From the NCBI GenBank assembly GCA_965207065.1, contig OZ242260.1, positions 416,001 through 480,000 on the forward strand: a DNA stretch of 64,000 nucleotides, given 5' to 3'. This DNA comes from a bacterium (GTDB lineage Bacteria > UBA8248). The position numbers and the translations under genes were made by a program. Positions 12,132-44,314 of the stretch are shown here, piece by piece (within the stretch, counting starts at the first letter, position 1; every line of letters begins with the position of its first letter). The notes below the pieces were generated by a model that had not been told where the DNA came from, did not search any database, and saw only the letters and a list, made by a program, of their open reading frames with translations.

Positions 12132-12182
12132 AATTTAGGGCAAGGAGACTCGAACGCGGGCCGGGCAAATGCGGGGAAATGC
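12132..12182 (-). promoter_or_regulatory. Shared phage-module promoter, copy 1 (head-tail module)
   Basis: Minus strand reads GCATTTCCCC GCATTTGCCC -N25- TAAATT. Confidence 0.75.
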
Positions 12183-12377
12183 GCATCCGGCGTCTTTTTT
12201 TGCGGAATTTTGAAATTGCTAATTGAAAATTTTAAGAAAATGCGGTAAATTACGGAAAATTCTGGAGTTGCGGATGATGCGGGTGGTCCCGGCGTCTACC
12301 AATTCTGGATACTTCGCCCGCCACTCAGGAATAGCCTGAATTCGCCGAGCAAAAAGACCGCCCCTTGAACAGGACGT

Positions 12378-13688
12378 ATGAGGTTTGATCTCATGTGGGG
12401 CGTCGCTCAACCGGTCTTGAATTTCATCCAGAAACTCTCCTGGAACCATATGCTCGACATCGGGATCATGTGGTTCCTGCTTTACCAGGTCTATATTCGC
12501 TTCAAAGGCACCCAGGCGATGCGCCTCCTCGTGCGCGTGTTCGGAGTGTGGCTCATCTATCTCGCCTCCCAGGCCGCGGGTCTGCACCTGACCTCGTTTC
12601 TCCTTTGGGCCATCTGGATCGCCGTGCTCATCCTGTTTCTCATCAATTTCCACGGCGAGATCCAAAAGATATTCTTTCAACTCAACCCGGTGCGCAGAAT
12701 CTCAATCCTGCTGCGCCGGGCGATGCGAATCCGCCTGCCGGACGTAAGCGTCGCCACCATCGCCCAATCCGCTTTTTCGCTCTCGGAGAAGCAGATGGGC
12801 GCCATCATCGTTGTGGAGCGCCGGGATTTGACCGACTCCCTGCTGAGAAGTCCGGGAGAGGAGATCGAGGCGGACATCCAGCCGGCGCTGCTGGAAACCA
12901 TTTTCTTCAAGGGAGCGCCCTACCACGACGGCGCCGCCGTCGTTCGCGAGAACAAGATCTCGCGCGTGGGATGCGTATTGCCCCTTTCAGATAACCGCGC
13001 CCTGCCGCCGGAGTTCGGCACGCGCCACAGGGCGGCGGTCGGCATCACGGAGCGGTCCGACGCCCTGGCGATCGTGATATCCGAGGAACGCGGAGAGATT
13101 ACATGCGTGGAAGGCAGCCAAACAAAGACGATAGATAATGAGGAAGAACTCGCCTCCTGGCTCACGGCGCGGCTGCGCGCGGCCCGCGAGACGGGACAGA
13201 CGATGGGACGCATATCGCTCCGCCACGTTTTCGAGAACTGGCGGCCCAAGCTCGCCGCCCTGGCCGCCGTCATATTCCTCTGGTCGCTCGGCGGGCAGGA
13301 AAACCAGAATCCGCAGAATTTCTTCCCGCAACTCGAAAGCAAGGTGGAGGAGGAATTCCGCGTCCGCGTCCATTATTACAATGTTCCGAGCGGCGTCACC
13401 CTGCCGGCCGATGCGGCGAAAGAAGTCAAAATACGCATCAGGGGCAGGCGCGATCTGCTCAATTACATCGACGCCACCCGCCTGCGCGTGAACGTGAACC
13501 TCGCCAAAATGACGCCCGGCGCGCATTCGCGCACGCTGTCGGGACGCGACATCGACCTGCCAAACGGTCTCGAATTCCTGAGCGCGGAGCCCAAGGCCCT
13601 GGATTTGAATCTCGCCAAGGCGCCGGCGCCTGAGAAAATGACGAAATCGAGCGCCTCCACCGAGACGCCGGAGTCCTCAAACTTTTAA
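12378..13688 (+). CDS. dacA: Membrane diadenylate cyclase (CdaA/DacA) with C-terminal YbbR-like domain
   Basis: Three N-terminal TM helices, HDGA and GTRHRAA DAC motifs, ISEERG. Confidence 0.9.
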   Translation: MRFDLMWGVAQPVLNFIQKLSWNHMLDIGIMWFLLYQVYIRFKGTQAMRLLVRVFGVWLIYLASQAAGLHLTSFLLWAIWIAVLILFLINFHGEIQKIFFQLNPVRRISILLRRAMRIRLPDVSVATIAQSAFSLSEKQMGAIIVVERRDLTDSLLRSPGEEIEADIQPALLETIFFKGAPYHDGAAVVRENKISRVGCVLPLSDNRALPPEFGTRHRAAVGITERSDALAIVISEERGEITCVEGSQTKTIDNEEELASWLTARLRAARETGQTMGRISLRHVFENWRPKLAALAAVIFLWSLGGQENQNPQNFFPQLESKVEEEFRVRVHYYNVPSGVTLPADAAKEVKIRIRGRRDLLNYIDATRLRVNVNLAKMTPGAHSRTLSGRDIDLPNGLEFLSAEPKALDLNLAKAPAPEKMTKSSASTETPESSNF

Positions 13689-13763
13689 GGCCCTTCTTTT
13701 CAGATACTTGAATTTCTACCTTCAGAAAAATTTGCTTTTTTCGCTTAAAATACCGATATTGAA

Positions 13764-13897
13764 TGAACCGGGCTACAGTCGCTGAGACGTCCAGGAGCTT
13801 TGACGAGCACTAAGGGCGAACCATTTTCGATGGTACTTGGCTGGCCCAAGTGAGGCGGCAAGGAGCCGACACAGAAAACGGCTCCGGCCCGGGTTCA
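13764..13897 (+). ncRNA. Candidate structured RNA (riboswitch-like), class unassigned
   Basis: Ends pair (TGAACCGGGC/GCCCGGGTTCA) and enclose several internal stems; intergenic. Confidence 0.4.
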
Positions 13898-14082
13898 AGG
13901 AACCCTTCAACAGAAGGAGGATGCGATGATATCAACGATAAATCGCTTCAGCCGTGCGGAAACGCCACCCTCCCCGGCCCCATCGCGTCAGCCGGGCGGG
14001 GAGGAAGACAAAGGCTGATGCACAAATAAAGGCGACAAAACGCCTTCGTGAGGTGAGACGAGTTCTCACCCTGAAAAAGAGC

Positions 14083-14127
14083 AAAAAAAGAGAGCGGGGT
14101 GCAACGCCCCGCTCTTCTTTTTTTTTC
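14083..14127. terminator. Bidirectional intrinsic terminator
   Basis: A-run, agagcgggg/ccccgctct stem, T-run. Confidence 0.8.
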
Positions 14128-14322
14128 CTAGCTCTTGGCCTCGAGTTTCCGCATCTCGATTTCGAGTTGCTGGAGCCTGTTCTTGATCATGTTGAAGTCG
14201 TACTCGAACCCCTCGGCGAGCAGCGTGAGACCATGATAGAGCTGGTGCTTTTCCGGCTCTTCCTCCGCGTTCACCGAATCGAGCATCTCGGCGAAAACCT
14301 CTCTGGCATGATGAAAGCTCAA
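14128..14322 (-). CDS. Small hypothetical protein with coiled-coil C-terminus
   Basis: ORF with purine-rich SD ending at the terminator. Confidence 0.55.
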   Translation of the reverse strand: MSFHHAREVFAEMLDSVNAEEEPEKHQLYHGLTLLAEGFEYDFNMIKNRLQQLEIEMRKLEAKS

Positions 14323-14457
14323 AACGCCTTCCCCCTTTTTGAATGAGAACGCACATTAAGAAGCCATAAATCTTTTGCAGGAAGAATCCCGCTCCTATCT
14401 TTGCTAGAATCCATCGCACCGACAAATAAACCACATCGCAAACGAGGAGTCATCTTC

Positions 14458-14955
14458 ATGCCGGAAAGACCAAACACGCCGCAAGTCATCCTCCGCCACA
14501 TTCAGGGCACCCAGCTTCAGATGCTCACCACCACGGGCAAACACTCCTACGTGCTCGATGAGCCCGAAACCAGAGGCGGCACGGACCTGGCCGCCACGCC
14601 GTTCGAGTTCTTCATCGCAGGGCACGCGGGCTGAGGCCTCTACACGCTGCTGGGAGCGGCGAAGGCCAAGGGCATCCATATCGACGACGTGGAGGTCCAC
14701 GCGGAGTTCAAACGGAATATTTCACCCAAATTTCATTCGGATTACCACGCGGACCCCGAGCGGAGAAAACTCGCCATCGGCGTCATCCGTACGAGCTATT
14801 ACATCCACGGCGACGTAACCGAAGAGCAAAAGGCGGAACTTCTCGATGAACTTGAGAACTGCCCCATCCACAACACGCTGATGACGCCGCCCAGGCTCGA
14901 GGAGCGGATCGTCGTTCTGGAGAAGGATGAAACCGCGCCCATAGAGATTTCGTAA
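14458..14955 (+). CDS. OsmC-family protein, probable selenoprotein (UGA at 14632-14634)
   Basis: DEPETRGGTD..TPFE..AGHAG-U-G, then in frame to ENCPIHNTL; hairpin follows the UGA. Confidence 0.75.
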
Positions 14956-14984
14956 GGGCGGGGAAAGAGCCGCTCGCTAAATTA

Positions 14985-15224
14985 GGGGTTCTTGAAAAAG
15001 TTCTCATCGGTCGGTCGGAATCGACCACTGCCGTCATTCCGGCGAAAGCCGGAATCCATTTTCGGATGCGGGTGAATGAACGGCGGCGTTTCATTCCCCA
15101 CCAATGCGCGGGAACCCTGACGAAAGGCAAAAGGCGTAAAAATAGATTCCGGCTTTCGCCGGAATGACGGTGAATACTCTCGATGGGGGCAACAACCCCA
15201 TTGAGGGACTTTTTCAACAACCCC
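14985..15224. mobile_element. MITE-like element with IS1182-like ends carrying a CGTCATTCCGGCGAAAGCCGGAATC palindrome pair
   Basis: ggggttcttgaaaaagt ... actttttcaacaacccc; inverted REP copies at 15031-15058 and 15143-15170. Confidence 0.65.
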
Positions 15225-15279
15225 AATAATGGGAGCCTTGAACTTCGGCAGGAAAGGAAGACACCCTTCAAAATGAGTC

Positions 15280-15753
15280 TTAGTAGGAAATCTTGTCTTC
15301 CATCTGAGCCCATAGATTGAAGGATTCGAGGGCTTCATCTTCCAGGAGCCGCGTTGCTTCGAGCTTTCTGTCAGCGACCGGCAGGGCGATTTCCTTGTAG
15401 AGAAATTCATCGGAAAACCCGATGGCGTCAGCCTCGACGATGGAGTTTCCAAAATACATACGGTCGAGTCTCGACCAGTAAATTGCGCTCAAACACATCG
15501 GGCAGGGTTCACAGCTCGTATATATCTCACAGCCTGACAAATCGAAATTCTTCAGTTTCGCGCAGGCCGCCCGTATGGCGATCATCTCGGCATGGGCTGT
15601 GGGATCGCAAGATGACGTCACCCGGTTCGTACCCTCGCCGATGATTTCGCCATCCTTCACGACGACGGACCCGAAAGGCCCGCCGAGTCCTTCCCTCACG
15701 TTTTGAGAAGCGAGCGATATCGCCTTTCTCATAAAAGCTTCCCGTGTCTCCAT
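15280..15753 (-). CDS. guaD: Guanine/nucleoside deaminase (cytidine deaminase fold)
   Basis: GGPFG, DPTAHAE, SCEPCPMC. Confidence 0.8.
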   Translation of the reverse strand: METREAFMRKAISLASQNVREGLGGPFGSVVVKDGEIIGEGTNRVTSSCDPTAHAEMIAIRAACAKLKNFDLSGCEIYTSCEPCPMCLSAIYWSRLDRMYFGNSIVEADAIGFSDEFLYKEIALPVADRKLEATRLLEDEALESFNLWAQMEDKISY

Positions 15754-15959
15754 TTCCGCATCTCCCGTTGAGTTCCACCTTTCCGCCGATGTTTTCTCTT
15801 CTCTGCGTCTATATTTTCCCTGATTCCCCTCATCTTAACTTGTTTTTGGAATGGTTTGCATTTATTTTGCAGGCACTCCATTTATCGTCTCCAAAGAGCG
15901 GAGCCTGAAACGAGAGAAACCCTGCTGCGCGAAATTCGCAATCCAATAAGGATTTGATT

Positions 15960-16865
15960 ATGAAAATCGGATTCATCGGACTGGGAAACATGGGGGCAGG
16001 CATAGCGGCCAACCTCCAGAAAGCGGGCTATGAACTCGTCGTTCACGACATCGTCCGCGATGCCGCGACGGATCACATCGAACGAGGCGCACTCTGGGCG
16101 GACTCCCCTGAAGAGGTGGCCCACGCGAGTGAGATCATCTTCACCTCGCTGCCGGGTCCCAAGGAAGTCGAGAGCGTCGCCACGGGGCCGAACGGGATTC
16201 TCGCAGGCATCAGCGCGGGGAAAGTCTACGTCGACTTGAGCACGGTATATCCTTCCATCGTCCGCCGCATCCACGAGAAATTCTCAGAAGCAGGCGCGCA
16301 CATGCTCGAAGCACCGGTGAGCGGCTCCACAATCGGCGCGAACACGGGGCGACTCGCCATCATGGCGGGAGGTGAGAAGGAGGTATATGAGCGCTGCAAG
16401 CCCCTTCTCGACGCCATTGGAGACAGCCCCTCCTACACGGGTCCCATCGGCACCGGCGCCGTGTGCAAGCTCGCCCACAATTGCCTGAGCTACGGCATCC
16501 AAGCCATCGCGGCGGAATGCTTTACCCTGGGCGTCAAGGCGGGGGCGGACCCCGAGGTATTGGCCGAGGTGATCCGAAACGGCGCGGTGGGCCGGGCCGT
16601 GCACTTCAACTTCATCTTCTACGAGACATTCTTCAAGGGGAAATTCGACGAGCCACACTTTCCCATCAAGGGCGCCGTGAAGGACGTAGGGCTCGCGCTC
16701 CAACTCGCCAGAGAGCACGACGTACCCATGACGATAGGCAACATCGCCTACGGGGAGCTCATCTCGGGCTTGAACCGCGGCTGGGGGGATGATGACGCGA
16801 GGCGCGCCATGACGCTCCAGGAAGAACGCGCGGGCGGCGTGCAGGTGAGAATTCCAGAAAAGTAG
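15960..16865 (+). CDS. NAD(P)-dependent beta-hydroxyacid dehydrogenase (3-hydroxyisobutyrate DH family)
   Basis: GFIGLGNMG, EAPVSG, KLAHN. Confidence 0.9.
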   Translation: MKIGFIGLGNMGAGIAANLQKAGYELVVHDIVRDAATDHIERGALWADSPEEVAHASEIIFTSLPGPKEVESVATGPNGILAGISAGKVYVDLSTVYPSIVRRIHEKFSEAGAHMLEAPVSGSTIGANTGRLAIMAGGEKEVYERCKPLLDAIGDSPSYTGPIGTGAVCKLAHNCLSYGIQAIAAECFTLGVKAGADPEVLAEVIRNGAVGRAVHFNFIFYETFFKGKFDEPHFPIKGAVKDVGLALQLAREHDVPMTIGNIAYGELISGLNRGWGDDDARRAMTLQEERAGGVQVRIPEK

Positions 16866-16874
16866 ATTTTACGC

Positions 16875-17879
16875 ATGAAACACGGAATCGCCATGCTGCC
16901 TCCCGCGCCCGAGACCTACGCGCACTGGTGCCGGCTCTCAGAAGAAGCGGGCTTCGACGTCGTCTGGGTGCCGGACTCACAATCGCTTTACCGGGAGCTT
17001 TACGTCTCGTGCGCCATCTGCGCGGCGAACACCTCGCGTGTCCTGCTGGGTCCCAATGTCACCAACCCGCTCACGCGGCATCCCGCGACAGCGGCGAGCG
17101 CTATCGCCACCGTGGATGAGTATTCGGGTGGTCGCGCGCTGTTCGGAATCGCCACGGGCGACAGCGCCGTCCTGAACCTGGGCCTGCGCCCCGGCCGCGT
17201 GGACGACATGAGAGACTACGTGCTCGCCATGCGCGGGATGCTAGAGGAGGGCACGGCCCACTACCGGGGAAAGCCCTGCACGCTGAACTGGCACAAAAAG
17301 CGGGTTCCGCTCTACATCGCCGCCGAGGGGCCGCGCACCATCCGCCTTGCGGGCGAGATCGCCGACGGCGTCACCATCGGCACAGGCCTCACGCCCGAAG
17401 TGGTGGCCGATTCCCTCACCTGGCTCGAGGAGGGCGCGAGGAAATCGGGCCGCAAGGTGAACGATCTCGACATCTGGTGGCTCGCCAAGGTGAACGTGCG
17501 CGATGACGGCGAACAGGCACGCGAAGAAATCCGCATGGCCCTGGCCGCGAGCGCGCACCACGCCTTTCGCTTCACGCTCGAGGGCAAGCGGATTCCCAAG
17601 GAACTCCTCTCCGCCGTCGAAACCCTCAAAAAAGGGTATGCGTTCCACGAACACGAGATGGTGGACAAGCAGACGAACGCCGAACTCGTGGACAGGCTCG
17701 GCCTCCGCGAGTACCTGCTCGATCGCTTCGCCATCGCGGGCTCGCCTGCCGAATGCAGACAGAAGATAGAGGACATGAATTCGTTCGGCGTGGAGAACTT
17801 GAGGATCGCCGCCCACGTGCACGACAAGCCCGCCTTTATCCGGGCGTGGGGCCGCGAGATAATCAGCCGGAGCAAGTAA
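16875..17879 (+). CDS. LLM-class (probably F420-dependent) oxidoreductase
   Basis: VTNPLTRHP, SGGRALFGIATGDS, AAEGPRT..LAGEIADG. Confidence 0.85.
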   Translation: MKHGIAMLPPAPETYAHWCRLSEEAGFDVVWVPDSQSLYRELYVSCAICAANTSRVLLGPNVTNPLTRHPATAASAIATVDEYSGGRALFGIATGDSAVLNLGLRPGRVDDMRDYVLAMRGMLEEGTAHYRGKPCTLNWHKKRVPLYIAAEGPRTIRLAGEIADGVTIGTGLTPEVVADSLTWLEEGARKSGRKVNDLDIWWLAKVNVRDDGEQAREEIRMALAASAHHAFRFTLEGKRIPKELLSAVETLKKGYAFHEHEMVDKQTNAELVDRLGLREYLLDRFAIAGSPAECRQKIEDMNSFGVENLRIAAHVHDKPAFIRAWGREIISRSK

Positions 17880-17896
17880 CCAAAGAGGCCATCATC

Positions 17897-18898
17897 ATGA
17901 GACACGGCATTTCCTTCAGACCGCCCGACACGGATTCATTCGCCCGCTGGTGCAGGTGCGCGGAAGAGCTCGGTTTCGACGCGGTGTTCATCCCCGATAC
18001 ACAATCCCTCTACCGGGAGGTCTACGTATCGAGCGCGATATGTGCGATGGAGACGAGTGAGATCATTTTCGGCCCTTGCGTCACGAACCCCGTCACGCGG
18101 CACCCGGCGGTTGCCGCGAGCGCCATCGGCACCATCAGCGAGCTATCGGGCGGACGCGCCTTCTGGGGGATCGCCACGGGCGACAGCGCAGTCCTGAATC
18201 TGGGTCTCAGGCCCGCGAAGCTCGCCGAGATGCGCGAGTACATCCTCGCCGTGCGGGGCATGCTCGAAGAAGGAAGCGCCCAGTACAAGGGGAACAACGC
18301 CCGGCTGAGCTGGCATAAATCCCACGTGCCCATCCACATCGCTGCAGAAGGCCCCAAGACCTTAAGCCTGGCGGGCGAGGTGGCCGACGGCGTCATCATC
18401 GGAACGGGCCTCATTCCCGAGGTCATCGCGGACACGCTCTCCTTCATCGACGAGGGCGCCAGGAAGTCCGGCCGAAGGGTGGAAGACCTTGACCTCTGGT
18501 GGCTGGTGGACGCCCATGTGGACGCGGACGGGGAGCGCGCCCGCGCGGACATCCGCACCGCCCTCGCCGCGAGCGCGCATCATTCCTTCTCCTTCACGTT
18601 GGAGAACAAGCGGATTCCCAAGGAACTCGAATCCGGCATCCGCGCGCTGAGGGACGGTTACCAGACTTCGGAGCACGGCTTCATGGATAAATCCAACAAC
18701 GCAGGCTTGGTCGATGAGTACGGACTGAGGGACTACCTGGCGGAGCGCTTCGCCATCGTCGGCACGCCTGAAGAATGCCGGGAGAGACTCCAGCACCTCG
18801 AAAACCTGGGCGTCAGGGGGCTTCGCATCAACAACAACCTGCCCGACAGGACGGTCTTCATGAACGCCTGGGCGAAGGATGTTCGGGGGATCGCTTAA
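17897..18898 (+). CDS. LLM-class (probably F420-dependent) oxidoreductase, tandem paralog
   Basis: Same motifs as the upstream gene and visibly similar sequence. Confidence 0.85.
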   Translation: MRHGISFRPPDTDSFARWCRCAEELGFDAVFIPDTQSLYREVYVSSAICAMETSEIIFGPCVTNPVTRHPAVAASAIGTISELSGGRAFWGIATGDSAVLNLGLRPAKLAEMREYILAVRGMLEEGSAQYKGNNARLSWHKSHVPIHIAAEGPKTLSLAGEVADGVIIGTGLIPEVIADTLSFIDEGARKSGRRVEDLDLWWLVDAHVDADGERARADIRTALAASAHHSFSFTLENKRIPKELESGIRALRDGYQTSEHGFMDKSNNAGLVDEYGLRDYLAERFAIVGTPEECRERLQHLENLGVRGLRINNNLPDRTVFMNAWAKDVRGIA

Positions 18899-19044
18899 AC
18901 TCCGCGCGAGTAAAACGCCAAATTCCCACCGAGTAGACGCAAACCGATAATTTCCCTCGGGACGCCGCTTCGGTTAGAATGGCGGAAATGATCGAGACAG
19001 GCGAAATTCGACCTCCCCGTACAATCTCTCACAGGAGGGTGGGC

Positions 19045-19599
19045 ATGAGCGAAATGACGAAGGAAAAGGAAAAAATTCTCGTCTACGAGCCCGTGGCGGA
19101 GGCTCCGGGCGCGAGCGCCGTCATGGCCGCGCGGCCCGAGAGCTTAAACGGCAAGAGCGTGGGCCTCATCAACAACACCAAGGATTTCACGGACGATATT
19201 TTCGACGTCATGGGCGCCGCGCTCGAAGAGCAATTCCCGGGCGTGCGCGTGGTTCGCTACCGGAAGGAATCCGTGAGCGGCGCATCGCCCGCCCTGATGG
19301 AGCAGGTGGAAGGAGAGTGCGACGCCGTCGTTTCCGCACTCGGCGACTGAGGCTCGTGCACGTCGTGGAGTATCCACGACAGCGTCGCTCTCGAGAAAAG
19401 AGGGCTGGCCACGGTCACCATCGTCACCGACGCTTTTGCGAGCTATGCGAAGCAACTCACCAAGCTGCACAAGATGAACGAGCTTCCCCTCGTTACACTG
19501 CCCCACCCCATCGCTGGCAGAAAGCGCGAGGAGGTGGATGAGATGTCGGCAGAAGCGAGTGCGCATCTGGCAGGCGCCCTGACGCAAACGAGCGGCTAG
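19045..19599 (+). CDS. UGSC-family probable selenoprotein (UGA at 19348-19350)
   Basis: ALGD-U-GSCTSWSIHD; frame open to TAG 19599, 7 nt before the next gene; hairpin follows the UGA. Confidence 0.8.
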
Positions 19600-19606
19600 T
19601 CTATCC

Positions 19607-20707
19607 ATGAGCGAACCAAGTCCCGCCCGCCAGATAGCGCTCGACCAAGACGCCGGCGCGATATACGAGCACTTCTACGAGGAGGGCTGGACAGACGGGC
19701 TGCCCATCATCCCGCCAACCGAGGAGCGCGTCGCGGAAACCCTGCGTTACACGGACTACGCGCCGGGCGATATTATCGCCCATGTTCCGCCACGGAACGC
19801 GCCGGCCACGGCGGAAGTCATCGCCATCAACGCCGTGATGGCGGGCTGCAAGCCTGAATACCTGCCCGTGCTCATCGCCGCCGTCCAGGCCATGACGGAG
19901 CCCGCTTACAACCTATACGGCCGCCAGACGACCACCCATCCGGGCGCGCACCTGATGATCGTCCACGGGCCAGTAAGGAATGAAATCGAAGTCAACTGCC
20001 GCCAGAACGTCTTCGGCCAGGGCTGGCGAGCCAACGCGACGATGGGCCGCGCGGTGCGGCTCCTGATGATGAACGCGGGCGGCGGCATCCCCGGCGTGAC
20101 GGACATGGCCACTCACGGGCATCCGGGAAAATACTCCTACACCATCGGCGAGGATGAGGAGGGAAGCCCCTGGCCGGCATTTCACGTCGACAGGGGTTTT
20201 TCGCCGGATACTTCCGCCGTCACCATGCTCTGCGCCGAGTCGCCCCACAACGTAAACGACCTGGTGAGCAAGACGCCGCATAAATACCTGGGCACGGCGG
20301 CTTCGGCCATGAGCCACCTGGGCGCGAACGGCGTCTACCGGAGCGGGCTGCCGAGTGAGCAGATGCTCGTCCTGACAGCCGAGGCCGCCACGTGGCTATC
20401 GAACCAGGGGTGGACGAAGGCCGACGTATCCCAGTTCATCTACGAGAACGCGCGTCAGCCGATTCGTCTCATGCGTGACCGGGGGGGGTTCGACATGACG
20501 CCGCTCGCTCCTTTCGTGAATCTCGAAGAAGACGAGGACATGGCCCCCATCGTCCCGAGGCCCGAAGACATCCTCATCGTCGTAGCCGGCGGCCACGGCC
20601 GCCACATGCAGGCCGTCCTCACGGCGAGCTACAACCTGAGCGTTACAAAGGCCATCACCAGAAAAGACGGAACGCCGATTGAGTCGGTAAGGGAGTTTGT
20701 GTCGTGA
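19607..20707 (+). CDS. Conserved protein usually linked to UGSC proteins
   Basis: GWTDGLPIIPPT, AINAVMAGCKPEY, RANATMGRA. Confidence 0.7.
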   Translation: MSEPSPARQIALDQDAGAIYEHFYEEGWTDGLPIIPPTEERVAETLRYTDYAPGDIIAHVPPRNAPATAEVIAINAVMAGCKPEYLPVLIAAVQAMTEPAYNLYGRQTTTHPGAHLMIVHGPVRNEIEVNCRQNVFGQGWRANATMGRAVRLLMMNAGGGIPGVTDMATHGHPGKYSYTIGEDEEGSPWPAFHVDRGFSPDTSAVTMLCAESPHNVNDLVSKTPHKYLGTAASAMSHLGANGVYRSGLPSEQMLVLTAEAATWLSNQGWTKADVSQFIYENARQPIRLMRDRGGFDMTPLAPFVNLEEDEDMAPIVPRPEDILIVVAGGHGRHMQAVLTASYNLSVTKAITRKDGTPIESVREFVS

Positions 20708-20773
20708 GGGGGATTGCATTTCCGCTCTGTCTCGCGGAACGATACGGGGGTCCGGGCGGGTTCTCCTCGCAGA

Positions 20774-21064
20774 TTAGGCTACCCTGAACTTATCCACCTT
20801 GATTTCGTCGGCCCGGGCGCGCGCCTTCCAAAGATCGTAAGCCATCTGCAGGCCGAGCCAGGTCTCCGGTGTCGAGCCGAACGCTTTGGACAGGCGAATC
20901 GCCATTTCCACGGAGATGCCGGTGTGTTCGTTGACCAGTTCCGACAAGGTCTGACGCGTGACGCCAATCCCCTCGGCCGCTTTCGTCACGGACAATCCGA
21001 GCGGCTCAAGACATTGCCGTTTCACGATCCCACCCGGATGTGGAGGATTTTGCATCGCCATCAC
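20774..21064 (-). CDS. higA: HigA antitoxin
   Basis: NPPHPG, Xre HTH, EMAIRLSKAFG, WLGLQMAYDL. Confidence 0.9.
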   Translation of the reverse strand: MMAMQNPPHPGGIVKRQCLEPLGLSVTKAAEGIGVTRQTLSELVNEHTGISVEMAIRLSKAFGSTPETWLGLQMAYDLWKARARADEIKVDKFRVA

Positions 21065-21074
21065 AGTACCCTCG

Positions 21075-21353
21075 TCAATGGTAGTCGAGGTAATCTAGAT
21101 CGACTACGTCACCCTCTTCGAATCGAAAGGTTACCCGCCAATTCCCTGAAACCGTCACTGCATAATGACCCTTCAGTTCCCCCTTCAGTCGGTGGAGCCG
21201 AAAACCAGGGAGAGCAACATCTTGCGGCTGCCGACTCCTGTCCAGAACGGCCAGAATATCCCTTAGTTTCTGAACATGCTCCGGCGCGACTCGCCGCGCC
21301 GTTCGACCATCGTAGAGTGCTTTCAGGCCCCGATGTTTGAAAGACGCGATCAT
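21075..21353 (-). CDS. higB: HigB toxin (RelE superfamily)
   Basis: SFKHRGLK, LHRLKG, VSGNWRVTFRF, DYLDYH. Confidence 0.9.
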   Translation of the reverse strand: MIASFKHRGLKALYDGRTARRVAPEHVQKLRDILAVLDRSRQPQDVALPGFRLHRLKGELKGHYAVTVSGNWRVTFRFEEGDVVDLDYLDYH

Positions 21354-21513
21354 CGATGAAGAATAATGCGTCAGGCGTCGCCTGTCAACTGACGAACCGG
21401 CAACGATAACGTCAGGAGGGCGAGGCGGGTGACCCCTCGTTTGAATTTTCGTATGTGAAGACAGAGATAGAATTCAGGCCTAGAAAACGCCCTTGGGCCG
21501 CGTTCTTCCCCCC

Positions 21514-22863
21514 CTACCCCTCCATATCCATACCGAACTGGCCCGCCAAGTGGGTGATGAGCTTGCCGGCGGCATCGTCGCTCATCCAGCCGCGTGAGGT
21601 GGCCGTCTCGAGCGCGGTGCTGACGCGCAAAAGGGCTTCGGACATCTTCTCGGTGTCGCGGACGGAGATATCCGGCAGAACGGGCGATACGCCGGAGCGG
21701 AGCGCTTCTTCTGGCAGCGCGCCCGCGCGGTGGGCTTCTTCCAACTGCTTGTCGGCCATGGCTTGCAGGATATGGCGCACGGTGCGCTGGCGGCGCGTCA
21801 TCTTCTTCAAGGTGGGCTGATCCATCGACTCGGCCGAGGCGCGGTTCACGTCCTCCCCCTGGGCGAACCAGTGGGACGGGATCCCCACGCCGCCTAATAG
21901 AAGCCCCCGCATCATCTTGGCGATGCCCTGCGCGCCGGATTCGCCTCCCTTGAGATCGGGCGAGACGGCCTGCCACTCCTCTTTCTCGTTGTGGACGCGG
22001 ACGCTCGAGGGCTTTGGCGCGACGCCGTTCTCAGCGAGCCACTCGGCTATCTTCTCGGGGCCGGCGCCTTTCAGGGTGACGTCGTAGATGAAGCTGTTCT
22101 GCAGGCGCGCGCGCTCCACGGCGTCGAAGATGAAGCGCTCATACGTGTCTATCCAGTCGATGGCGGCGAGCAGGTCCGAAGCGCCGCGCGCGGCGTCGCT
22201 CGCCTTGTTGATCTGGAACAGGAACGCCTCCCCATCCGTAAAGCGCGCACGCTCCCTCCGGGCGGATGCGCTCAGATAGCCGCGCGGATCGCCGCCCAGC
22301 ACCGTCCGGATTCGCTTGCCCTTTCGTGCAGTTCCACTCGGCCCCCCGGCGCGCAGGACGACCCCGATGGGCAGGGCGCAGTTGTCCGGGTCCGTCACCA
22401 CCTCTTCAATCAGGCGGGGGCTGACGTAGCCCAGCCGAACCCGTCCCTCGAAGCGCGAGACGGCGACGGGCAGCAAGAGTTCCCCGAAGATGCCGAGTTC
22501 AGATACGAGCCGCTCGAAACGGATGTCCATCTGGTTCACGGGATCGCCCCAGAACGCCTTCACCGCGCTCAGGGCGCGCTCATCCTCCCCGTGCCAGCTT
22601 ATTCCCTCGCCCACGACGTGATCCGTCACGATTTCGATCAAGCGCTGGCCCATGAGGTTCGTGAGCCAAAGCTCATACGCCAACGCCTGCATACGCGCGT
22701 GCGTGTAAGGCGAAACTCCGCCGCGCCCCTCTCCCAGGGGACGCCAGATTCTCTCGTCCGGATCAATCTCCGCACTCATTCGCCCTGTACGCTGCGAGCC
22801 CTCTCCTTTTCTCCCTGCTCCCGATTTCCGCCCGGCTGCCTTCACCTTCTTCACACTCTCCAT
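21514..22863 (-). CDS. Phage portal protein
   Basis: 449 aa directly downstream of terminase; GIFGE, RGASDL, GIPSHWF and NRASA portal-type motifs. Confidence 0.8.
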   Translation of the reverse strand: MESVKKVKAAGRKSGAGRKGEGSQRTGRMSAEIDPDERIWRPLGEGRGGVSPYTHARMQALAYELWLTNLMGQRLIEIVTDHVVGEGISWHGEDERALSAVKAFWGDPVNQMDIRFERLVSELGIFGELLLPVAVSRFEGRVRLGYVSPRLIEEVVTDPDNCALPIGVVLRAGGPSGTARKGKRIRTVLGGDPRGYLSASARRERARFTDGEAFLFQINKASDAARGASDLLAAIDWIDTYERFIFDAVERARLQNSFIYDVTLKGAGPEKIAEWLAENGVAPKPSSVRVHNEKEEWQAVSPDLKGGESGAQGIAKMMRGLLLGGVGIPSHWFAQGEDVNRASAESMDQPTLKKMTRRQRTVRHILQAMADKQLEEAHRAGALPEEALRSGVSPVLPDISVRDTEKMSEALLRVSTALETATSRGWMSDDAAGKLITHLAGQFGMDMEG

Positions 22864-22865
22864 GC

Positions 22866-23507
22866 TTATCTCCTCTTTAGAATCCGCTTGTGAAAAGCCT
22901 GCGGGACCACCGTGCCCCCGGCGAGGGGGGCCAGCACTCCCTCGCTCTGCGCCAGGGATTCGGCCAGCCGCGCGTAGGCGCAGGCGAAGCCGAAATGGTT
23001 CTCGTTTCGCTCATACGACAGCACCGTCTCCCCGGAGGAGCGGATGCGCGGCTTTTTCCTCAAATTCATGAGGTGACGCTCCACCTTGCCCAAAAGCGCC
23101 TCCTCCCCTGTATCTCCGGGCTGCGGCAGCAGGACCCGTCCGGCTCCCTCGTGAAACTCCTCCACGAGGTGATCCAGCAGGTCCTCGCGGTTCATCCGCA
23201 CGTGGCGACGCTCCACCCCCAGGAACGAGACTTCCCTGGTCTGCATCTCGCCCTCCGTGTGCCGCCAGATGAAGCCGCCGTCTGGATTCAGGTCGTACAC
23301 CGCGCGCGCCTCCCGGGTGTGGGGACCGCCGTCTATGACGAACGCCTCCACGCCCAGGTCCGAGAACACGGCGCGGCAGCGCTCGATGAGCCGCTCGACG
23401 GGAGGCGCTTCGAAATACATCCACCGGGCGGGCCGGCCCTCCTCGCGCACAGCAAGCGCGCAGACGTCGCCCGTGTCGATCCCGCAGAAGCGATGGCGCG
23501 CGCTCAT
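22866..23507 (-). CDS. Terminase large subunit, C-terminal nuclease half
   Basis: CGIDTG, VIDGGP and ENHFGFACAYA RNase H-like motifs; GGAGG SD and ATGA overlap with upstream gene. Confidence 0.75.
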   Translation of the reverse strand: MSARHRFCGIDTGDVCALAVREEGRPARWMYFEAPPVERLIERCRAVFSDLGVEAFVIDGGPHTREARAVYDLNPDGGFIWRHTEGEMQTREVSFLGVERRHVRMNREDLLDHLVEEFHEGAGRVLLPQPGDTGEEALLGKVERHLMNLRKKPRIRSSGETVLSYERNENHFGFACAYARLAESLAQSEGVLAPLAGGTVVPQAFHKRILKRR

Positions 23508-24562: not shown

Positions 24563-24612
24563 AGCCGGAACTCCTCCCTATCCAGGATGCCGTGCGCATC
24601 CTCTCGGGGAGG

Positions 24613-24663
24613 AATATAGGGGTTGGTGCCGGCAAACCATGACGCGCAATTGCGGGGAAATGC
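24613..24663 (-). promoter_or_regulatory. Shared phage-module promoter, copy 2 (terminase-portal module)
   Basis: Minus strand reads GCATTTCCCC GCAATTGCGC -N25- TATATT. Confidence 0.75.
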
Positions 24664-24674
24664 GCGCTCAGGTT

Positions 24675-25160
24675 CTAGTCGCGCATGTTCTCGAACTGAA
24701 GCGCGAGTTTGAGGTCGAGCTCCCGGCAGAGGGTGATCACCTGCTGCAAGTCGTCGCGCTTCTTGCCGGTCACTCTCAACTGGTCACCCTGAATCGCGAC
24801 CTGCACCTTCATTTTCGTCGCCTTCACCTTCTTGACGATCTCACGCGCCGCGTCCTGATCCACGCCTTGTTTCACCAATAGGGTCTGCCTGAGCGCGCCG
24901 CCTGCGGCGGATTCGGGTTCCTTGAAGTCGAGCGCGCGCAGATCCACCTTCCGTCTCGTGAAATGGGTATGCACCAGATCGTGCATCTGCCTGAGCTTGA
25001 AATCATCGTCAGCCAGCAGGGTGACCTCCGTATCATTTCGCTCAAGCGCGCATTTCGACCCCTTGAAATCAAACCGCTGGGCGATTTCCCGACGCACCCC
25101 GTTGATCGCGTTGTCGACTTCCTGTAAATCCGTCCTTGAAACAATGTCGAATGAAGGCAT
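24675..25160 (-). CDS. yajQ: YajQ-family nucleotide-binding protein
   Basis: MPSFDIVS, RFDFKGS, IQGDQLRVTGKKRDDLQ. Confidence 0.95.
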   Translation of the reverse strand: MPSFDIVSRTDLQEVDNAINGVRREIAQRFDFKGSKCALERNDTEVTLLADDDFKLRQMHDLVHTHFTRRKVDLRALDFKEPESAAGGALRQTLLVKQGVDQDAAREIVKKVKATKMKVQVAIQGDQLRVTGKKRDDLQQVITLCRELDLKLALQFENMRD

Positions 25161-36772: not shown

Positions 36773-36797
36773 GGCCCCCGCCGCCGGTGGAATCTCC

Positions 36798-38543: not shown

Positions 38544-38570
38544 CGCGCACCTCTCGTGTTTTGTCGGGAA

Positions 38571-40319: not shown

Positions 40320-40466
40320 GTTTCGCCTTTCCGTGAAAAAGGTGGATCACCGTCGGTGATGTATTTGGGATTGGGGGAATATAACCGAGGGGGACTTAGG
40401 CGTCCAGATGGGGGGTATAAAAACTACAAATCAGGAGAATCAGCGGCGAAGGGATGAGACGCTGGT

Positions 40467-40706: not shown

Positions 40707-40709
40707 AGG

Positions 40710-41054
40710 CTATACCTCTGCGAATTTTTGCGGATCCACCCGGGGCAAGGGGACATCACAAGAAATGATGTCCGGGAGGCTTTGCGGGGGCTTCGATTTC
40801 AGGTGTCGCTTCACGCTATCACGTTTAACCGACTCATAGAGCGCATGATAGGAAGGCTCGGCGGGCACGAAAATCTCATCCAGGGTGTCGTGCTGCACGG
40901 CGAAAGATATCTGTGCCTCGACCGCTTCGGTGAGACTTTCCACCGCCTGATCTTGCGTTTCCCCATAGCCCCTGAGGCTCATATCCAGCGCGATCGCGCA
41001 CCACATCCCGTCTTCACGTACGACCAGAACACGGAGGGTATGGTTGAAATTCAT
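40710..41054 (-). CDS. HicB-like antitoxin
   Basis: EDGMWCA...GYGETQDQAVESLTEAV HicB N-terminal pattern; adjacent to hicA. Confidence 0.7.
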   Translation of the reverse strand: MNFNHTLRVLVVREDGMWCAIALDMSLRGYGETQDQAVESLTEAVEAQISFAVQHDTLDEIFVPAEPSYHALYESVKRDSVKRHLKSKPPQSLPDIISCDVPLPRVDPQKFAEV

Positions 41055-41189
41055 TCGTGCGTGAACTCCTCAATTTTGTTCGTTGATCGTTTGTAGAAAC
41101 CGCCAATACCATTGCGGCTCATACAGGCGCATAGCTTACATGGTTTTATGAAGGTTCGCACCCGTCGCAATTTTGGCCCTCCCCCCCCA

Positions 41190-41762
41190 TCACTCCACCT
41201 GCTCCTCGAGCTTCCGGGTCGCCTCCTCGACGATTTCGCATACCTTGTCCATAATCTCGGGGTGCTCGCGGAACGACTCGCGCACCTCTTTCACGATCGC
41301 CAGCTTGGCGGCGGCGAAACCGTCCTCGTACTGGAGCCTCAGCTTCTCGGCCGATATACGGCTGCGCTCGAGCCCGTTCACCATCCGGGCGAGTTTCTCC
41401 GGCGTCAGGCGCTCGAAGGATTCCTTCCCCATCTGCGAGACGGCCTCGACCGCCTGCGTCATCAGCATCCGCCGCGCGGCCGCGGCCACCTTCTCTCCCG
41501 GGTCCCTGCCCTCGCCATCGTACGCCATGACTTCCTCGATCAGCTCATCCACCATGGCTTCCACCCGCCTGGTCTTGCGGATACCCTCTAGCAGGCGATT
41601 GTTGCGCGTCCCGATGGAGCCGAGCGTTATCTTCTCCCCGGTCTCCTTCTCGAAAGCCTCGGCCACTTCCTGGTAGGTCTTCCCCTCAGCGAGCATGGTA
41701 TCGACGATTTTCTCCGCGCCATATTCCACTACTTTCGATCTGCGCCCCCGCCTCCTCTCCAT
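41190..41762 (-). CDS. Mu gp27/DUF3486-like protein (probable small terminase)
   Basis: RGRRSKV N-terminus, TYQEVAE helix-turn-helix, helical C-terminus. Confidence 0.7.
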   Translation of the reverse strand: MERRRGRRSKVVEYGAEKIVDTMLAEGKTYQEVAEAFEKETGEKITLGSIGTRNNRLLEGIRKTRRVEAMVDELIEEVMAYDGEGRDPGEKVAAAARRMLMTQAVEAVSQMGKESFERLTPEKLARMVNGLERSRISAEKLRLQYEDGFAAAKLAIVKEVRESFREHPEIMDKVCEIVEEATRKLEEQVE

Positions 41763-42094
41763 TACAGATCCCCCACGAGGATGTCCGGCGAGGCGGATAC
41801 GGCGCCTTCGAGCAGGCCGCGCCCCTTGCGGGTCAGGTGCGCCTCGTAATCCGTCAGCAGGCGGCCGAACCCGCCCGGGGTGCGCTTTTCCACCAAACCC
41901 CGCCCGGCCAGATCGTCCACGAAGGCCTCGAGCGTCTCGCGGCCGAGGGGCGCGCCGTCCTCATGGTGGCCCGCCTCGCGCAGCGCGCTCCAAAGGAGAA
42001 GGCTCCCCACACTCGATTTCTCCTGAAATGCATTCTGGTAATAAAGCGTCTTCAAAATGTCGCCGCGCAGGACGCGGGCCGCCAGTTCGTTCAC
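41762..42094 (-). CDS. Mu gp26-like winged-helix protein
   Basis: RGDILKTL, LAGRGLV, AHLTRKGRGLLEG; coupled to the gp27-like gene. Confidence 0.6.
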   Translation of the reverse strand: MNELAARVLRGDILKTLYYQNAFQEKSSVGSLLLWSALREAGHHEDGAPLGRETLEAFVDDLAGRGLVEKRTPGGFGRLLTDYEAHLTRKGRGLLEGAVSASPDILVGDL

Positions 42095-42239
42095 GATAAG
42101 ACACCTCCTCGATAACTTTCATTCCGGCGCGCCGGACGCCATCCGCCGTAAGCCAGGCCTCTTCCACCCACTGAAACATCTCCTCGATGACTTTCACCCT
42201 GAAATGCCAAACATCCCCCCGTGCGCGGGGACATCCGGC

Positions 42240-42290
42240 AGTATAGAAGGCGGCGCGGGTTCGGGGGGTGCGGCAAATGCGGGCAAATGC
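42240..42290 (-). promoter_or_regulatory. Shared phage-module promoter, copy 3 (gp26/gp27 module)
   Basis: Minus strand reads GCATTTGCCC GCATTTGCCG -N25- TATACT. Confidence 0.75.
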
Positions 42291-42352
42291 AGGGCCTTTG
42301 CATTGAGAAAAAGACTTGCGGGTTGCACAATGCCGCCCGAGGAGGACGTACG

Positions 42353-42757
42353 ATGCGCTCCAGCGCGCCGACAACCGCCGCACTCGCCATACTCGCGCTA
42401 TGGTCCCTGGGACTTTCAGTCGCGCCGGCCTTCGGCCACGGGGAGGAGGAAATCCTCCTGTTCGCCTATCTGGCGGAAGAACGCAACCTGCTCAGGATCT
42501 CGACCGCCATCGTGGGCGGCATCATCCTGTCGATGGGCGCCTTCATCATCCAGCAATCACGCGCCGAGGCGAGGGAGAGCGACCGGGCCGAATTCACGGG
42601 CTTCCGGGTGATATTGCCGGGGCTGCTCGTCACCTGCCTGGGCGTCGGCGTGCTGTTCACGGCCGCCTTCATCCTGCCCGAGCAGATCAAGATCGTGCAC
42701 GACCATCCCCTGGAGCACGTCGAGACGAAAACCACGAAAAAAAGAAGCGGCCCGTGA
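42353..42757 (+). CDS. Small hypothetical membrane protein
   Basis: GGAGG SD, signal peptide, two TM helices. Confidence 0.65.
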   Translation: MRSSAPTTAALAILALWSLGLSVAPAFGHGEEEILLFAYLAEERNLLRISTAIVGGIILSMGAFIIQQSRAEARESDRAEFTGFRVILPGLLVTCLGVGVLFTAAFILPEQIKIVHDHPLEHVETKTTKKRSGP

Positions 42758-42773
42758 GGGTCGGGCATCCCCA

Positions 42774-42972
42774 GGGGAATGCCCGATGAAAGGGGCCTCT
42801 TTATTAGGGGTGGAGGGGACGCCCCTCTCTGCTGAAAAAAGCAACCCCCCCTACCCCCCCTTAACAGGGGGGTAAAGGCGATACCCCCCCGACGAGGGGG
42901 GTGGAAGAAAAGCCCCCCTGACAAGGGGGGTTGGGGGGTTACTCCTTTGACAAAGACTTTTCAACAACCCCC
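42774..42972. repeat. Degenerate MITE/REP related to the 30828-31090 element
   Basis: Shared tggaggggacgc.cctct and poly-C/poly-G palindromes; right end actttttcaacaacccc. Confidence 0.55.
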
Positions 42973-42996
42973 AGGCCCTCCCCGCGCAAGCGTTTC

Positions 42997-43422
42997 TCAC
43001 CGCGTCTTTCCCGTGAGTTTCTCGACGGTGCGAAACGCGCCCAGACCCAGCATCCCCAGGGTGAGTTCGAGAAGTCCCTCCGCCGAGACGGGATAGGGCG
43101 CGAGCTCGCCGCTCATCAGCACCTGCCGCGTCCAGAGCCAGGCGCCCAGGGCGTACTGGGGGATGAAATAAAACGCGAGCGATACCCCGCAGGTCCACAG
43201 GATGAACGGCCTGCCGCCTGCGACGAACACGCTGCGGTGGGCGGCTTCGATTTTATTGATCTCGTTCTGGGCCTCTAAGGGCCGCATCATCAGCTTTTGC
43301 TTGATCGCCTCGGCCGCGCGCCGCTCATCGGGCGTTTCGACGAACCTGTCGATGACGTTGGCGACGCCCTCCGCCGCCGTGACGACGCCGCCGCCGATGA
43401 GCTTTTCCAAAAAGGCCATCAC
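42997..43422 (-). CDS. 3TM holin-family protein
   Basis: EINKIEAAHRSVFVAGGRPFI and GMLGLGAFRTVEK; adjacent to lysozyme. Confidence 0.8.
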   Translation of the reverse strand: MMAFLEKLIGGGVVTAAEGVANVIDRFVETPDERRAAEAIKQKLMMRPLEAQNEINKIEAAHRSVFVAGGRPFILWTCGVSLAFYFIPQYALGAWLWTRQVLMSGELAPYPVSAEGLLELTLGMLGLGAFRTVEKLTGKTR

Positions 43423-43832
43423 GCGCTCCTCATGCTATCGGCGACCCTTCCCGCCCGCGCGGGGAGGTCCCTCGCGTAAACCGAATCGAGCGCCTCCGAT
43501 GCCGCGCGCGCATAATCCCCCTCCGCGAGCGCGGCCCACATCTTCCTGAACCCCAGGAGGTTCGGCACGCCCATGTTGTAGGCCATGTTCAAGACGGCGC
43601 GCCGTGCTCCGGGCCTCAGATTCTCGTACACCTCCCCCACACGCGAGTTTTCGAGTTCGCGCCCCATCAGAGACAGCCGATGCCGGAGGAGCAGTTCGGC
43701 TTCGGCTTCCGATATCCCGTCTTCGAGCAGCGTTCCGTAGCCGATGGTCTTCTTGCTCCTGGCGTCGAGATACACCACCGGCACGAAACCCTCCTCGCGC
43801 TTGATCTCCTCTACGAGCACGTCGGTGAGCAT
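43419..43832 (-). CDS. Phage lysozyme (T4-like, GH24)
   Basis: EEG..VYLD..TIGYG, NMAYNMG, FRKM. Confidence 0.85.
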   Translation of the reverse strand: MLTDVLVEEIKREEGFVPVVYLDARSKKTIGYGTLLEDGISEAEAELLLRHRLSLMGRELENSRVGEVYENLRPGARRAVLNMAYNMGVPNLLGFRKMWAALAEGDYARAASEALDSVYARDLPARAGRVADSMRSA

Positions 43833-44050
43833 GATTTCTCCTCATTCACAAGCGAATCCCCGGCTTTGGCCACCTGTTGCAGGACGCGCAGGAGCGCCGC
43901 CGCGCCCTTGCGCGCGCCCGAGCGTTGCGCATAAGCCTGACTCGAGGCCAGGACCCGTCCGTTCCTCGCACGAACGCGGAAGCGATGCCGACCGGATCTG
44001 TCCCGGAAAATCTCGACGGGGCGATGCTTCGCGTTCTTTACGGCCGCCAT
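43811..44050 (-). CDS. DUF1508/YegP-family protein
   Basis: EIFRDRSGRHRFRVRARNGRVLASSQAY. Confidence 0.75.
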   Translation of the reverse strand: MAAVKNAKHRPVEIFRDRSGRHRFRVRARNGRVLASSQAYAQRSGARKGAAALLRVLQQVAKAGDSLVNEEKSCSPTCS

Positions 44051-44187
44051 ACATAACCCCCCAGGAAAAAGCCCAGGCTCACGAGAAATGCGCCCACGGC
44101 GATGAGGCGCAGGACGGTATGTTTCTCCTTCGCCCAGCGCCACAGGAAGGCGTCCGTTCTTTTTTCGATTTCATTTTTCTCTGACAT
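44038..44187 (-). CDS. 49-aa single-TM protein, first gene of the lysis module (not in the ORF track)
   Basis: GAGGAG SD; MSEKNEIEKRTDAFLWRWAKEKHTVLRLIAVGAFLVSLGFFLGGYVWRP. Confidence 0.6.
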   Translation of the reverse strand: MSEKNEIEKRTDAFLWRWAKEKHTVLRLIAVGAFLVSLGFFLGGYVWRP

Positions 44188-44253
44188 GACTCTCCTCTCT
44201 CAGATAGCGAAATCCCGCGCGCCGCCCGTGGGCGATGCGTCTCGACGTGAGAG

Positions 44254-44314
44254 ATTCTAGGCCTTGATCCCGCCGGGCCGATGACGGAAAATGCGGGCAA
44301 CTGCGGGGTGATGC
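44254..44314 (-). promoter_or_regulatory. Shared phage-module promoter, copy 4 (lysis module)
   Basis: Minus strand reads GCATCACCCC GCAGTTGCCC GCATTTTCCG -N25- TAGAAT. Confidence 0.72.

Follow-up and report, generated by a model that had tools for sequence, protein, structure and literature searches.

The window analyzed here is a stretch of 64,000 nucleotides (nt) of contig OZ242260.1 (GenBank assembly GCA_965207065.1; a bacterium of the GTDB lineage UBA8248), corresponding to bases 416001 to 480000 of a genome of 4,476,866 bases. Four phage gene operons (islands) in the window are each headed by the same promoter-like design, and we consider it reasonably probable (about 60%) that these four sites are activator-dependent promoters of one class, lacking a -35 element and belonging to an old, domesticated phage remnant that resembles a gene transfer agent (GTA). 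The design begins with a 20-bp site in which two 10-bp units (sometimes three) are arranged head to tail, followed by a 25-bp spacer (N25) and a -10 hexamer of the type TAnnnT; at the phage operons it is located 45 to 140 nt upstream of the first gene. The sites in the window are as follows.

12182 to 12132, minus strand: promoter 1, consisting of GCATTTCCCC GCATTTGCCC (12182 to 12163), N25, and the -10 hexamer TAAATT (12137 to 12132); heads the capsid/neck/tail-tube operon.
12189 to 12270: AT-rich stretch just 5' of promoter 1, with degenerate units around an ATTT core; kept in the closer species only.
24663 to 24613, minus strand: promoter 2, consisting of GCATTTCCCC GCAATTGCGC, N25, and the -10 hexamer TATATT; heads the operon of the large terminase (TerL) and portal.
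42290 to 42240, minus strand: promoter 3, consisting of GCATTTGCCC GCATTTGCCG, N25, and the -10 hexamer TATACT; heads the small-terminase (TerS) operon.
44314 to 44254, minus strand: promoter 4, consisting of three 10-mers, N25, and the -10 hexamer TAGAAT; heads the lysis operon.

All four sites were read on the minus strand exactly where a preliminary description of this DNA had placed them, and the 10-bp repeat period and exact 25-nt spacer that it reported were seen in each. The spacers were also, as described, unlike one another and without a common -35 element: no TTGACA-like hexamer was found 16 to 18 bp before TAnnnT at any of the four sites, and the same holds across species. The unit has the consensus GCATTTSCCC in the genus and is half-palindromic (GCAWWTGC). 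If transcription starts ~7 nt past the -10 hexamer, the units lie at -57 to -38, with their center near -47. A degenerate pattern (two proximal 10-mers, 25 free bases, and TAnAnT, with up to one mismatch) gave four matches in the window, which were the four sites, and none in 100 dinucleotide-preserving shuffles; because the pattern was written from these very sites and is to that extent circular, only the shuffle control is informative.

For the whole genome, a 20-mer weight matrix was derived from 87 genome-wide seeds and applied to both strands at a threshold of 16 bits. It gave 193 matches, against 3 in a third-order Markov copy of the genome, and these merge into 117 loci. The four sites are the only loci in the window, the plus-strand matches there being reverse-complement shadows; many matches have such a weaker shadow on the opposite strand because the unit is half-palindromic. 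Two units are present at 103 loci and three at 14. The combination of A at -11 and T at -7 was found at the exact 25-nt spacer in 76 of the 117 loci and at each of the other spacers from 15 to 35 nt in only 1 to 8 loci, and the base frequencies over all loci are 69% for A at +27 and 69% for T at +31. Of the 117 loci, 101 lie entirely between ORFs, 5 do so in part, and 11 are inside ORFs, as called by a crude caller that takes 80% of the genome to be coding.

The design is conserved within the genus. Of 18 other genomes of the genus, 15 had 33 to 118 occurrences of the motif pattern, the counts in the other three being 0 (G009), 4 (G010), and 3 (G016), and the pattern was absent from 12 genomes of other families; a reversed-pattern control gave 0 to 1 matches. 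The capsid gene was identified in 20 of the 22 other genus genomes (78 to 91% identity), TerL and the first gene of a fifth operon (described below) in the same 20, and the lysozyme gene in 18. None of these four genes was found in G009 or G010 with these queries; the genus members without islands are also nearly without the motif. The promoters compare as follows across the genus.

Capsid promoter: 20 of 20 loci, ungapped to the -10 hexamer, which is TAGATT, TAAATT, or TAGTTT; one locus, with only 54 nt of upstream DNA, was dropped from the set.
TerL promoter: 21 of 21 loci, N25, invariant TATATT.
Promoter of the first gene of the fifth operon: 20 of 20 loci, spacer of 25 nt in 15 and of 24 nt in 5.
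Lysis promoter: 17 of 19 loci, N25, with TAGAAT, TAAACT, or TAGATT.
TerS promoter: 13 of 19 loci (several of the remaining ones being truncated), N25, with TATACT, TATATT, or TATGTT.

The repeats, the spacer length, and the -10 hexamer are thus kept over ~20 species, and the spacer sequence diverges in the distant ones; at the TerL promoter it differs widely in G001, G007, G016, and G033. G016 has three clear sites only, located before the capsid gene, TerL, and the first gene of the fifth operon.

A profile of six capsid sequences retrieved relatives from public metagenome-assembled genomes (Nitrospinota, Nitrospinaceae, and Candidatus Tectomicrobia). A capsid homologue is present in 37 of 51 genomes of the phylum, this one counted, and in 32 of 41 other genomes of the family. 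At distant capsid loci (53 to 73% identity), the site reads GAAnnTnCnG GAATTTnnnG and is followed, after exactly 25 nt, by TAGATT or TACATT in seven of eight cases; no such design was seen at the eighth, L160. Distant TerL promoters have the same design in five of five genomes (four by pattern and one by eye). The distance between the capsid and TerL genes is ~13 kb here and in G016 and G035 and ~13 to 15 kb in the distant genomes. Four capsid homologues from outside the family lie directly behind another ORF, and the promoter design was found at none of the four. Judged by these loci, the promoter geometry and the scattering of the operons are a family feature, with drift in the half-site sequence but none in the spacer length.

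The preliminary description expected further matches in the genome to mark missing tail islands, and the matrix scan did yield a fifth operon, the genes of which are weakly tail-like. At genome position 2,486,971 (minus strand), 2.07 Mb from the others, the motif, with TATATT at N25, is followed by seven consecutive ORFs, the operon ending at a copy of the dispersed repeat described below. The first ORF is similar to a cluster whose proteins are 78% viral (score, 0.98), the third resembles TipJ/Phage-tail_3 host-specificity clusters (0.95 to 0.97), and the last has weak tape-measure matches (phrog_1535, 9e-8). Searches of Pfam and PHROGs gave no match for the remaining ORFs of the operon, nor was there any for ten more ORFs of this stretch, which are mostly spurious opposite-strand frames or flanking genes. 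These gene identities are to be taken as leads, not proofs. Matches near 3,329,360 and 3,506,775 were also considered as further islands and were rejected as variant repeats. The core regulon across the family would comprise five operons, encoding (i) the head and tail tube, (ii) TerL and portal, (iii) TerS, (iv) lysis proteins, and (v) tail-tip-like proteins, and in this genus the promoter unit has also been multiplied on dispersed repeats of about 320 bp.

Together, the islands encode TerS, TerL, portal, capsid, neck, tail tube, lysozyme, holin, and tape-measure-like and TipJ-like proteins. Neither the islands nor their immediate surroundings showed any gene for replication or integration or for a repressor, and many island ORFs are without any family match. 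The capsid gene has dN/dS values of 0.10 to 0.19 against seven species. G009 and G010 have the window's host genes in the same order and show a clean absence of the islands; fragments of the portal (26 amino acids [aa]), TerS (25 aa), and the DUF1508/lysis operon (31 aa) in G010 indicate that the islands were secondarily lost. The element therefore has the sequence features of a GTA, namely, head, packaging, tail, and lysis genes with no replication, integration, or lysogeny genes seen alongside, as well as vertical inheritance, purifying selection, and fixed chromosomal sites. It would be predicted to produce particles and to package DNA.

As a mechanism, we propose that a DNA-binding activator would occupy the two units from one face of the DNA, with a subunit at each helical turn. 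Bound at about -57 to -38, it would recruit the sigma70 polymerase through contact with sigma region 4, the alpha C-terminal domain, or both, which would substitute for the missing -35 element. Promoter activity, and activation rather than repression, we infer from sequence; activation is favored because a repressor bound at this position would need no exact distance to the -10 hexamer.

The sigma70-type, activator-dependent regulon suggested in the preliminary description is supported by the rigid, conserved, -35-less elements before the phage operons, but a confinement of the regulon to phage islands is not supported. The full pattern was said not to have been seen upstream of host genes, which holds inside the window, but 113 further loci exist elsewhere in the genome, and most loci, 93 of the 117, are no more than 500 nt away from an AT-rich core, CCCCGTGAATTTATC, of a dispersed repeat. 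This core has 71 matches in the genome at up to two mismatches, and about 60 cores are present. The common form of the repeat is about 320 bp long and contains two promoters converging on the core: on one side the unit ends in CAGAAT preceded by TGG (an extended -10), and on the other side it ends in TATGAT or TATGCT. A longer form has a TATCGT promoter at its start and, past the core, three 10-mers in the same orientation without a -10 hexamer. The core itself is an array of ~10.5-bp iterons, (A/T)ATTTAYCGR, which have their ATTT center in common with the 10-mer. In type-B copies, the 10-mers at both ends are direct and not inverted (one alignment of eight copies). When a 5-kb query holding the promoter-bearing repeat and a second repeat family was searched by BLAST against five relatives, each gave 52 to 70 matches; the promoter-bearing repeat itself has tens of copies at 70 to 84% identity in each of the five and was located at synteny breaks. 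From G009 and G010, the two island-less members of the genus, the repeats have almost disappeared, and one lineage has islands and no repeats.

No gene family, including any transposase, was found to recur beside the repeats, and no Rfam family matches them. The possibility that they are small-RNA genes or two-way terminators was unsupported, the fold z-scores being -1.95 and 0.04 for the two strands of one copy; a consensus fold of 20 copies contained only a short 5' hairpin. Short, noncoding, and present in many copies, with a transposase of their own not found, the repeat-borne loci resemble, on that criterion, miniature inverted-repeat transposable elements (MITEs).

The 10-mer pairs could be the ends of a MITE-like repeat, or the binding sites in it for a recombinase, transposase, or nucleoid protein, with both their occurrence before phage operons and their likeness to promoters being secondary. 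Although the proximity of most loci to the core, the ~50 to 70 BLAST matches in each of the five relatives and the location at synteny breaks, the same-orientation 10-mers bounding type-B copies on both sides, and the ATTT-centered iterons all agree with such an origin, we regard it as unlikely: five single-copy phage operons keep the motif and the -10 hexamer at N24 to N25 in ~20 species, four of the five have no repeat body around the motif, G016 has the motif at phage operons only, the geometry is kept in distant lineages, and, as noted, neither a transposase nor any other gene family accompanies the repeats.

The repeats might also be working parts of the element. The ~60 copies, with late-type promoters converging on an iteron core, could serve as distributed packaging or local replication starts, a suggestion that we offer as speculative and improbable. 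On that equally doubtful extension, induction would fire transcription into the repeats chromosome-wide, and these would form a pac-site network built by the host for gene transfer. The near disappearance of the repeats in the island-less members fits this suggestion, as does the lineage that has islands and no repeats.

Of the 24 loci away from the core, five are the promoters of the phage operons, two accompany paired P4-type integrases, one is located 343 nt before a DEAD-box helicase gene, and some are inside ORFs and without a -10 hexamer. At genome positions 1555240 to 1557626 and 2368899 to 2371246 (minus strand), tandem P4-type tyrosine integrases lie behind motif promoters with TATGAT and CAGAAT, respectively, the second locus also encoding relaxase-like and repressor-like proteins. 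By these integrase pairs, other mobile elements seem to use the same promoter class.

A second alternative is that the repeats are the operator of a repressor or silencer and that the promoters fire through their -10 hexamers, in part extended ones, once the repressor leaves. Lytic elements need silencing, G is enriched at -14 (62%) and -13 (55%), and the commonest repeat promoters have TGG before CAGAAT, as would suit such promoters. However, repression from -57 to -38 has no use for an exact distance to the -10 hexamer, and yet the spacer is 25 nt and only rarely 24 nt; in addition, most phage operon promoters have neither TGn before the -10 hexamer nor a -35 element. We therefore find this explanation improbable.

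It is also quite doubtful that the repeats are a lineage-specific UP element read by two alpha C-terminal domains with no dedicated factor involved. The position of the UP subsites is known from E. coli rrnB P1, and the predicted interval of -57 to -38 coincides with two such subsites. Moreover, the only rRNA operon has TTGACA and TACTCT ~160 nt before the 16S start (promoter region at genome positions 1913916 to 1913966, plus strand), with a weak pair, GCATTTTCAG GCATTTCCCG, just 5' of TTGACA in the UP-element position. This pair is, however, unconserved, being absent from G009, G010, and G016 and represented by a single unit in G001 and G007; since the region is otherwise T-rich in these five relatives, with at most one unit kept, the rRNA promoter was rejected as a member of the class. 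The tandem pair was found in none of 47 tRNA/tmRNA upstream regions, many of which show TTGACA-N17-TAnnnT, and an UP element would also not be expected to be missing from G009 and G010 of the same genus or to drift in half-site sequence between lineages. Finally, we consider it highly improbable that the repeats and the -10 hexamer are read as a two-part promoter by a dedicated factor of the sigma type or by a phage protein bound to the polymerase. The rigid spacing resembles such recognition, but only four sigma70-family genes were found, none near an island, the -10 hexamer is of the ordinary TAnnnT type, and 25 bp exceeds the spans between sigma regions 4 and 2, of which we know of none this long.

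Several observations weigh against the activator-dependent promoters that we favor. The Mor/C family (PF08765) had no matches at E values up to 1 in a six-frame search of the whole genome (96% complete). Six proteins have Trans_reg_C domains, of which three are response-regulator-sized, two are kinase-receiver fusions, and one is a fragment; they have an ordinary two-component look, and none is near an island. The four sigma70-family genes (sigma70 region 2) are not linked to any island, and 13 scattered HTH_17 proteins and six GerE proteins have no link to the motif. YajQ (DUF520; window positions 24675 to 25160, minus strand) stops 12 nt short of promoter 2, and in G009 and G010 it disappeared along with the island. 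It was nevertheless rejected as the activator, its distribution over 41 family genomes not following that of the capsid: it is present in four of four genomes of a capsid-less genus (g17), and many capsid-bearing species have fragments of it. In addition, part of the genome-wide spacing signal would reflect shared ancestry and not independent selection, since 93 of the 117 loci are on repeats, and a site at -57 to -38 could equally serve a repressor or an architectural protein. Contigs of a metatranscriptome (run X1; 6% of sampled words), for which two DNA runs served as a comparison, contributed eight short pieces on window positions 5000 to 24900 that were uninformative on starts, strand, and level.

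No match to solved structures was obtained for the island ORFs 41762 to 42094 and 40710 to 41054, and Pfam identified no regulator among the other window genes that are absent from both G009 and G010. As for YajQ, only fragments of 40 to 80 residues remain in about half of the genus genomes, indicating that the gene is decaying in the genus.

The late promoters of phage Mu (Plys, PI, PP, and Pmom) are activated by C, which binds a dyad overlapping the -35 region. An analogy with these promoters was drawn in the preliminary description, and it applies at the level of function only. As in Mu, several late operons (lysis, head, and tail) have one promoter design, with a -10 hexamer, no usable -35 element, and a putative activator site upstream; Mu-like genes are also present, encoding TerS (gp27-like) and the capsid protein (a weak gpT match). 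On the other hand, the putative site is formed by direct 10-bp repeats, two or three in number and 25 bp upstream of the -10 hexamer, with its center near -47, and not by a dyad over the -35 region, no Mor/C family protein was found in the genome, and the islands are fixed and not a transposable prophage. Two of three features by which a Mu-type system would be recognized, the dyad and Mor/C, are thus missing, and the third, a -10 hexamer without a -35 element, is present.

OmpR/PhoB-type regulators bind tandem half-sites of 10 to 11 bp and activate promoters with poor -35 elements. The sites described here are similar to theirs in being 20 bp long, in having two head-to-tail 10-bp half-sites one helical turn apart, and in ending near -40 beside a promoter with no proper -35 element. 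The half-site sequence is, however, unrelated, and no winged-helix regulator could be tied to the motif. In the P2/P4 system, Ogr and Delta act at -35-less late promoters that are common to the helper phage and its satellites, the site being a dyad near -55; P2 Cox is a small protein that oligomerizes on direct-repeat cox boxes one helical turn apart. The presence of the motif before genes of other mobile elements (the two P4-type integrase loci) resembles the P2/P4 arrangement, whereas the direct repeats differ from the dyad of Ogr/Delta.

The genes of RcGTA, the GTA of Rhodobacter capsulatus, are spread over several loci. RcGTA is described as a domesticated phage with a dedicated activator, GafA, acting at its promoters (PMC9638019 and PMC6363796). 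The accessible part of the first contains no counterpart of the binding-site architecture found here or of the ~100 repeat-borne promoters (PMC9638019). The element of the present genome is likewise a domesticated phage and has a holin of the GTA_holin_3TM family, but it belongs to a different phylum. By analogy, the system may function like the late-promoter regulons of phages (Mu C and P2 Ogr) and like the GafA-controlled RcGTA, and what the present genus adds is that the promoter has spread onto about a hundred repeats.

In the literature listed for GTAs in Nitrospinota, Nitrospinae, Tectomicrobia, and Entotheonella, supplementary files aside, no such element was found, and the motif string was not found in the literature texts searched. 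If our interpretation is true, the element would add a new lineage, a family of uncultivated bacteria, to those with GTAs. The rule of two 10-bp units, 25 bp, and a -10 hexamer would be diagnostic for all parts of the scattered element, as it was in revealing the fifth operon, and could provide a DNA bait for the activator, and the drift between GAAnTT and GCATTT could be matched to candidate recognition helices. A late promoter on ~100 dispersed repeats within one genus would represent the growth of a regulon through mobile DNA.

The genes of the islands, and the host gene located between two of them, were assigned as follows.

5914 to 12034, minus strand: head/neck/tail-tube operon (Pfam and PHROGs).
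First gene of the head operon, minus strand: capsid protein of 692 aa, with a Phage_capsid_4 domain at residues 391 to 688.
After the capsid gene, minus strand: ORFs of 113 aa and 236 aa.
8305 to 8808, minus strand: Neck1/HK97-gp10-like ORF.
Between the Neck1/HK97-gp10-like ORF and the tail tube gene, minus strand: ORF of 177 aa.
6566 to 7747, minus strand: tail tube.
6101 to 6535 and 5914 to 6222, minus strand: two overlapping small ORFs in different frames, ending the head operon.
21514 to 24562, minus strand: TerL and portal operon, with TerL read in two overlapping frames.
23504 to 24562, minus strand: ATPase part of TerL (Pfam GpA_ATPase, 2.6e-15).
22866 to 23750, minus strand: nuclease part of TerL.
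21514 to 22863, minus strand: portal (phrog_10963, 3e-46).
20774 to 21353, minus strand: toxin-antitoxin pair (HigB-like toxin, HTH antitoxin) closing the TerL/portal island (Pfam).
40710 to 42094, minus strand: small-terminase operon, with an ORF of 110 aa, TerS, and an ORF of 114 aa.
41190 to 41762, minus strand: TerS, Mu gp27-like (Pfam PF11985, 7e-7; phrog_426, 8e-11).
42221 to 42757, plus strand: host gene between the lysis and TerS operons, without a Pfam family and outside the element.
42851 to 44187, minus strand: lysis operon (Pfam and ORF scan).
First in the lysis operon, minus strand: possible membrane ORF of 49 aa (ORF scan).
43811 to 44143, minus strand: DUF1508 protein (Pfam).
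43419 to 43832, minus strand: phage lysozyme (Pfam).
42997 to 43422, minus strand: holin with three transmembrane segments, GTA_holin_3TM family (Pfam).
After the holin gene in the lysis operon, minus strand: ORF of 115 aa.

The PHROGs matches of the TerL/portal operon were phrog_675 and phrog_10963 at 3e-46. Nearly all of 21 species have a match over the entire length of the first TerL frame (352 aa), their own open frames mostly being of 357 to 365 aa, and the split of TerL, or a programmed frameshift, therefore looks conserved. The two small ORFs at the end of the head operon occupy the position where a frameshift-made pair of tail-assembly chaperones is usually encoded; a tape-measure gene is absent after them, and a tape-measure-like gene is located in the distant fifth operon.

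The HigBA pair was lost along with the TerL/portal island in G009 and G010. The host gene at 42221 to 42757 is kept in both (61 to 77% identity over 109 to 111 aa), and the other genes between the islands are host genes as well, encoding diadenylate cyclase, YajQ, two S15 peptidases, and a sugar-binding protein; there is also an insertion sequence (IS) transposase. The latter, an IS-type DDE transposase (DUF772 and DDE_Tnp_1; window positions 27025 to 28473, plus strand), is missing at the corresponding syntenic position of G009 and G010 and has a second copy near genome position 2,083,650. At window positions ~15040 to 15190, the summed contig depth in the two DNA runs was 484 and 1831, versus ~16 to 25 and 80 to 100 alongside, and there were many alternative joints; this looks like a very abundant short repeat, either of the organism or of the community.

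At window positions 48238 to 48288, the iteron core occurs by itself, as GATAAATTGGCGGGGTTTTTCGATATAT, with no 10-mer pairs on its flanks, within a low-GC stretch (~46.4 to 48.5 kb) that is absent from G009 and G010. The second repeat family, of ~63 nt (genome positions about 1864513 to 1864575), has many copies at 92 to 98% identity in five of the five relatives searched and is far better conserved than the promoter-bearing repeat. At genome positions of about 2573970 to 2574080, a long, near-perfect hairpin matches microRNA-precursor models on both strands, below their gathering scores, and is probably a palindromic repeat.

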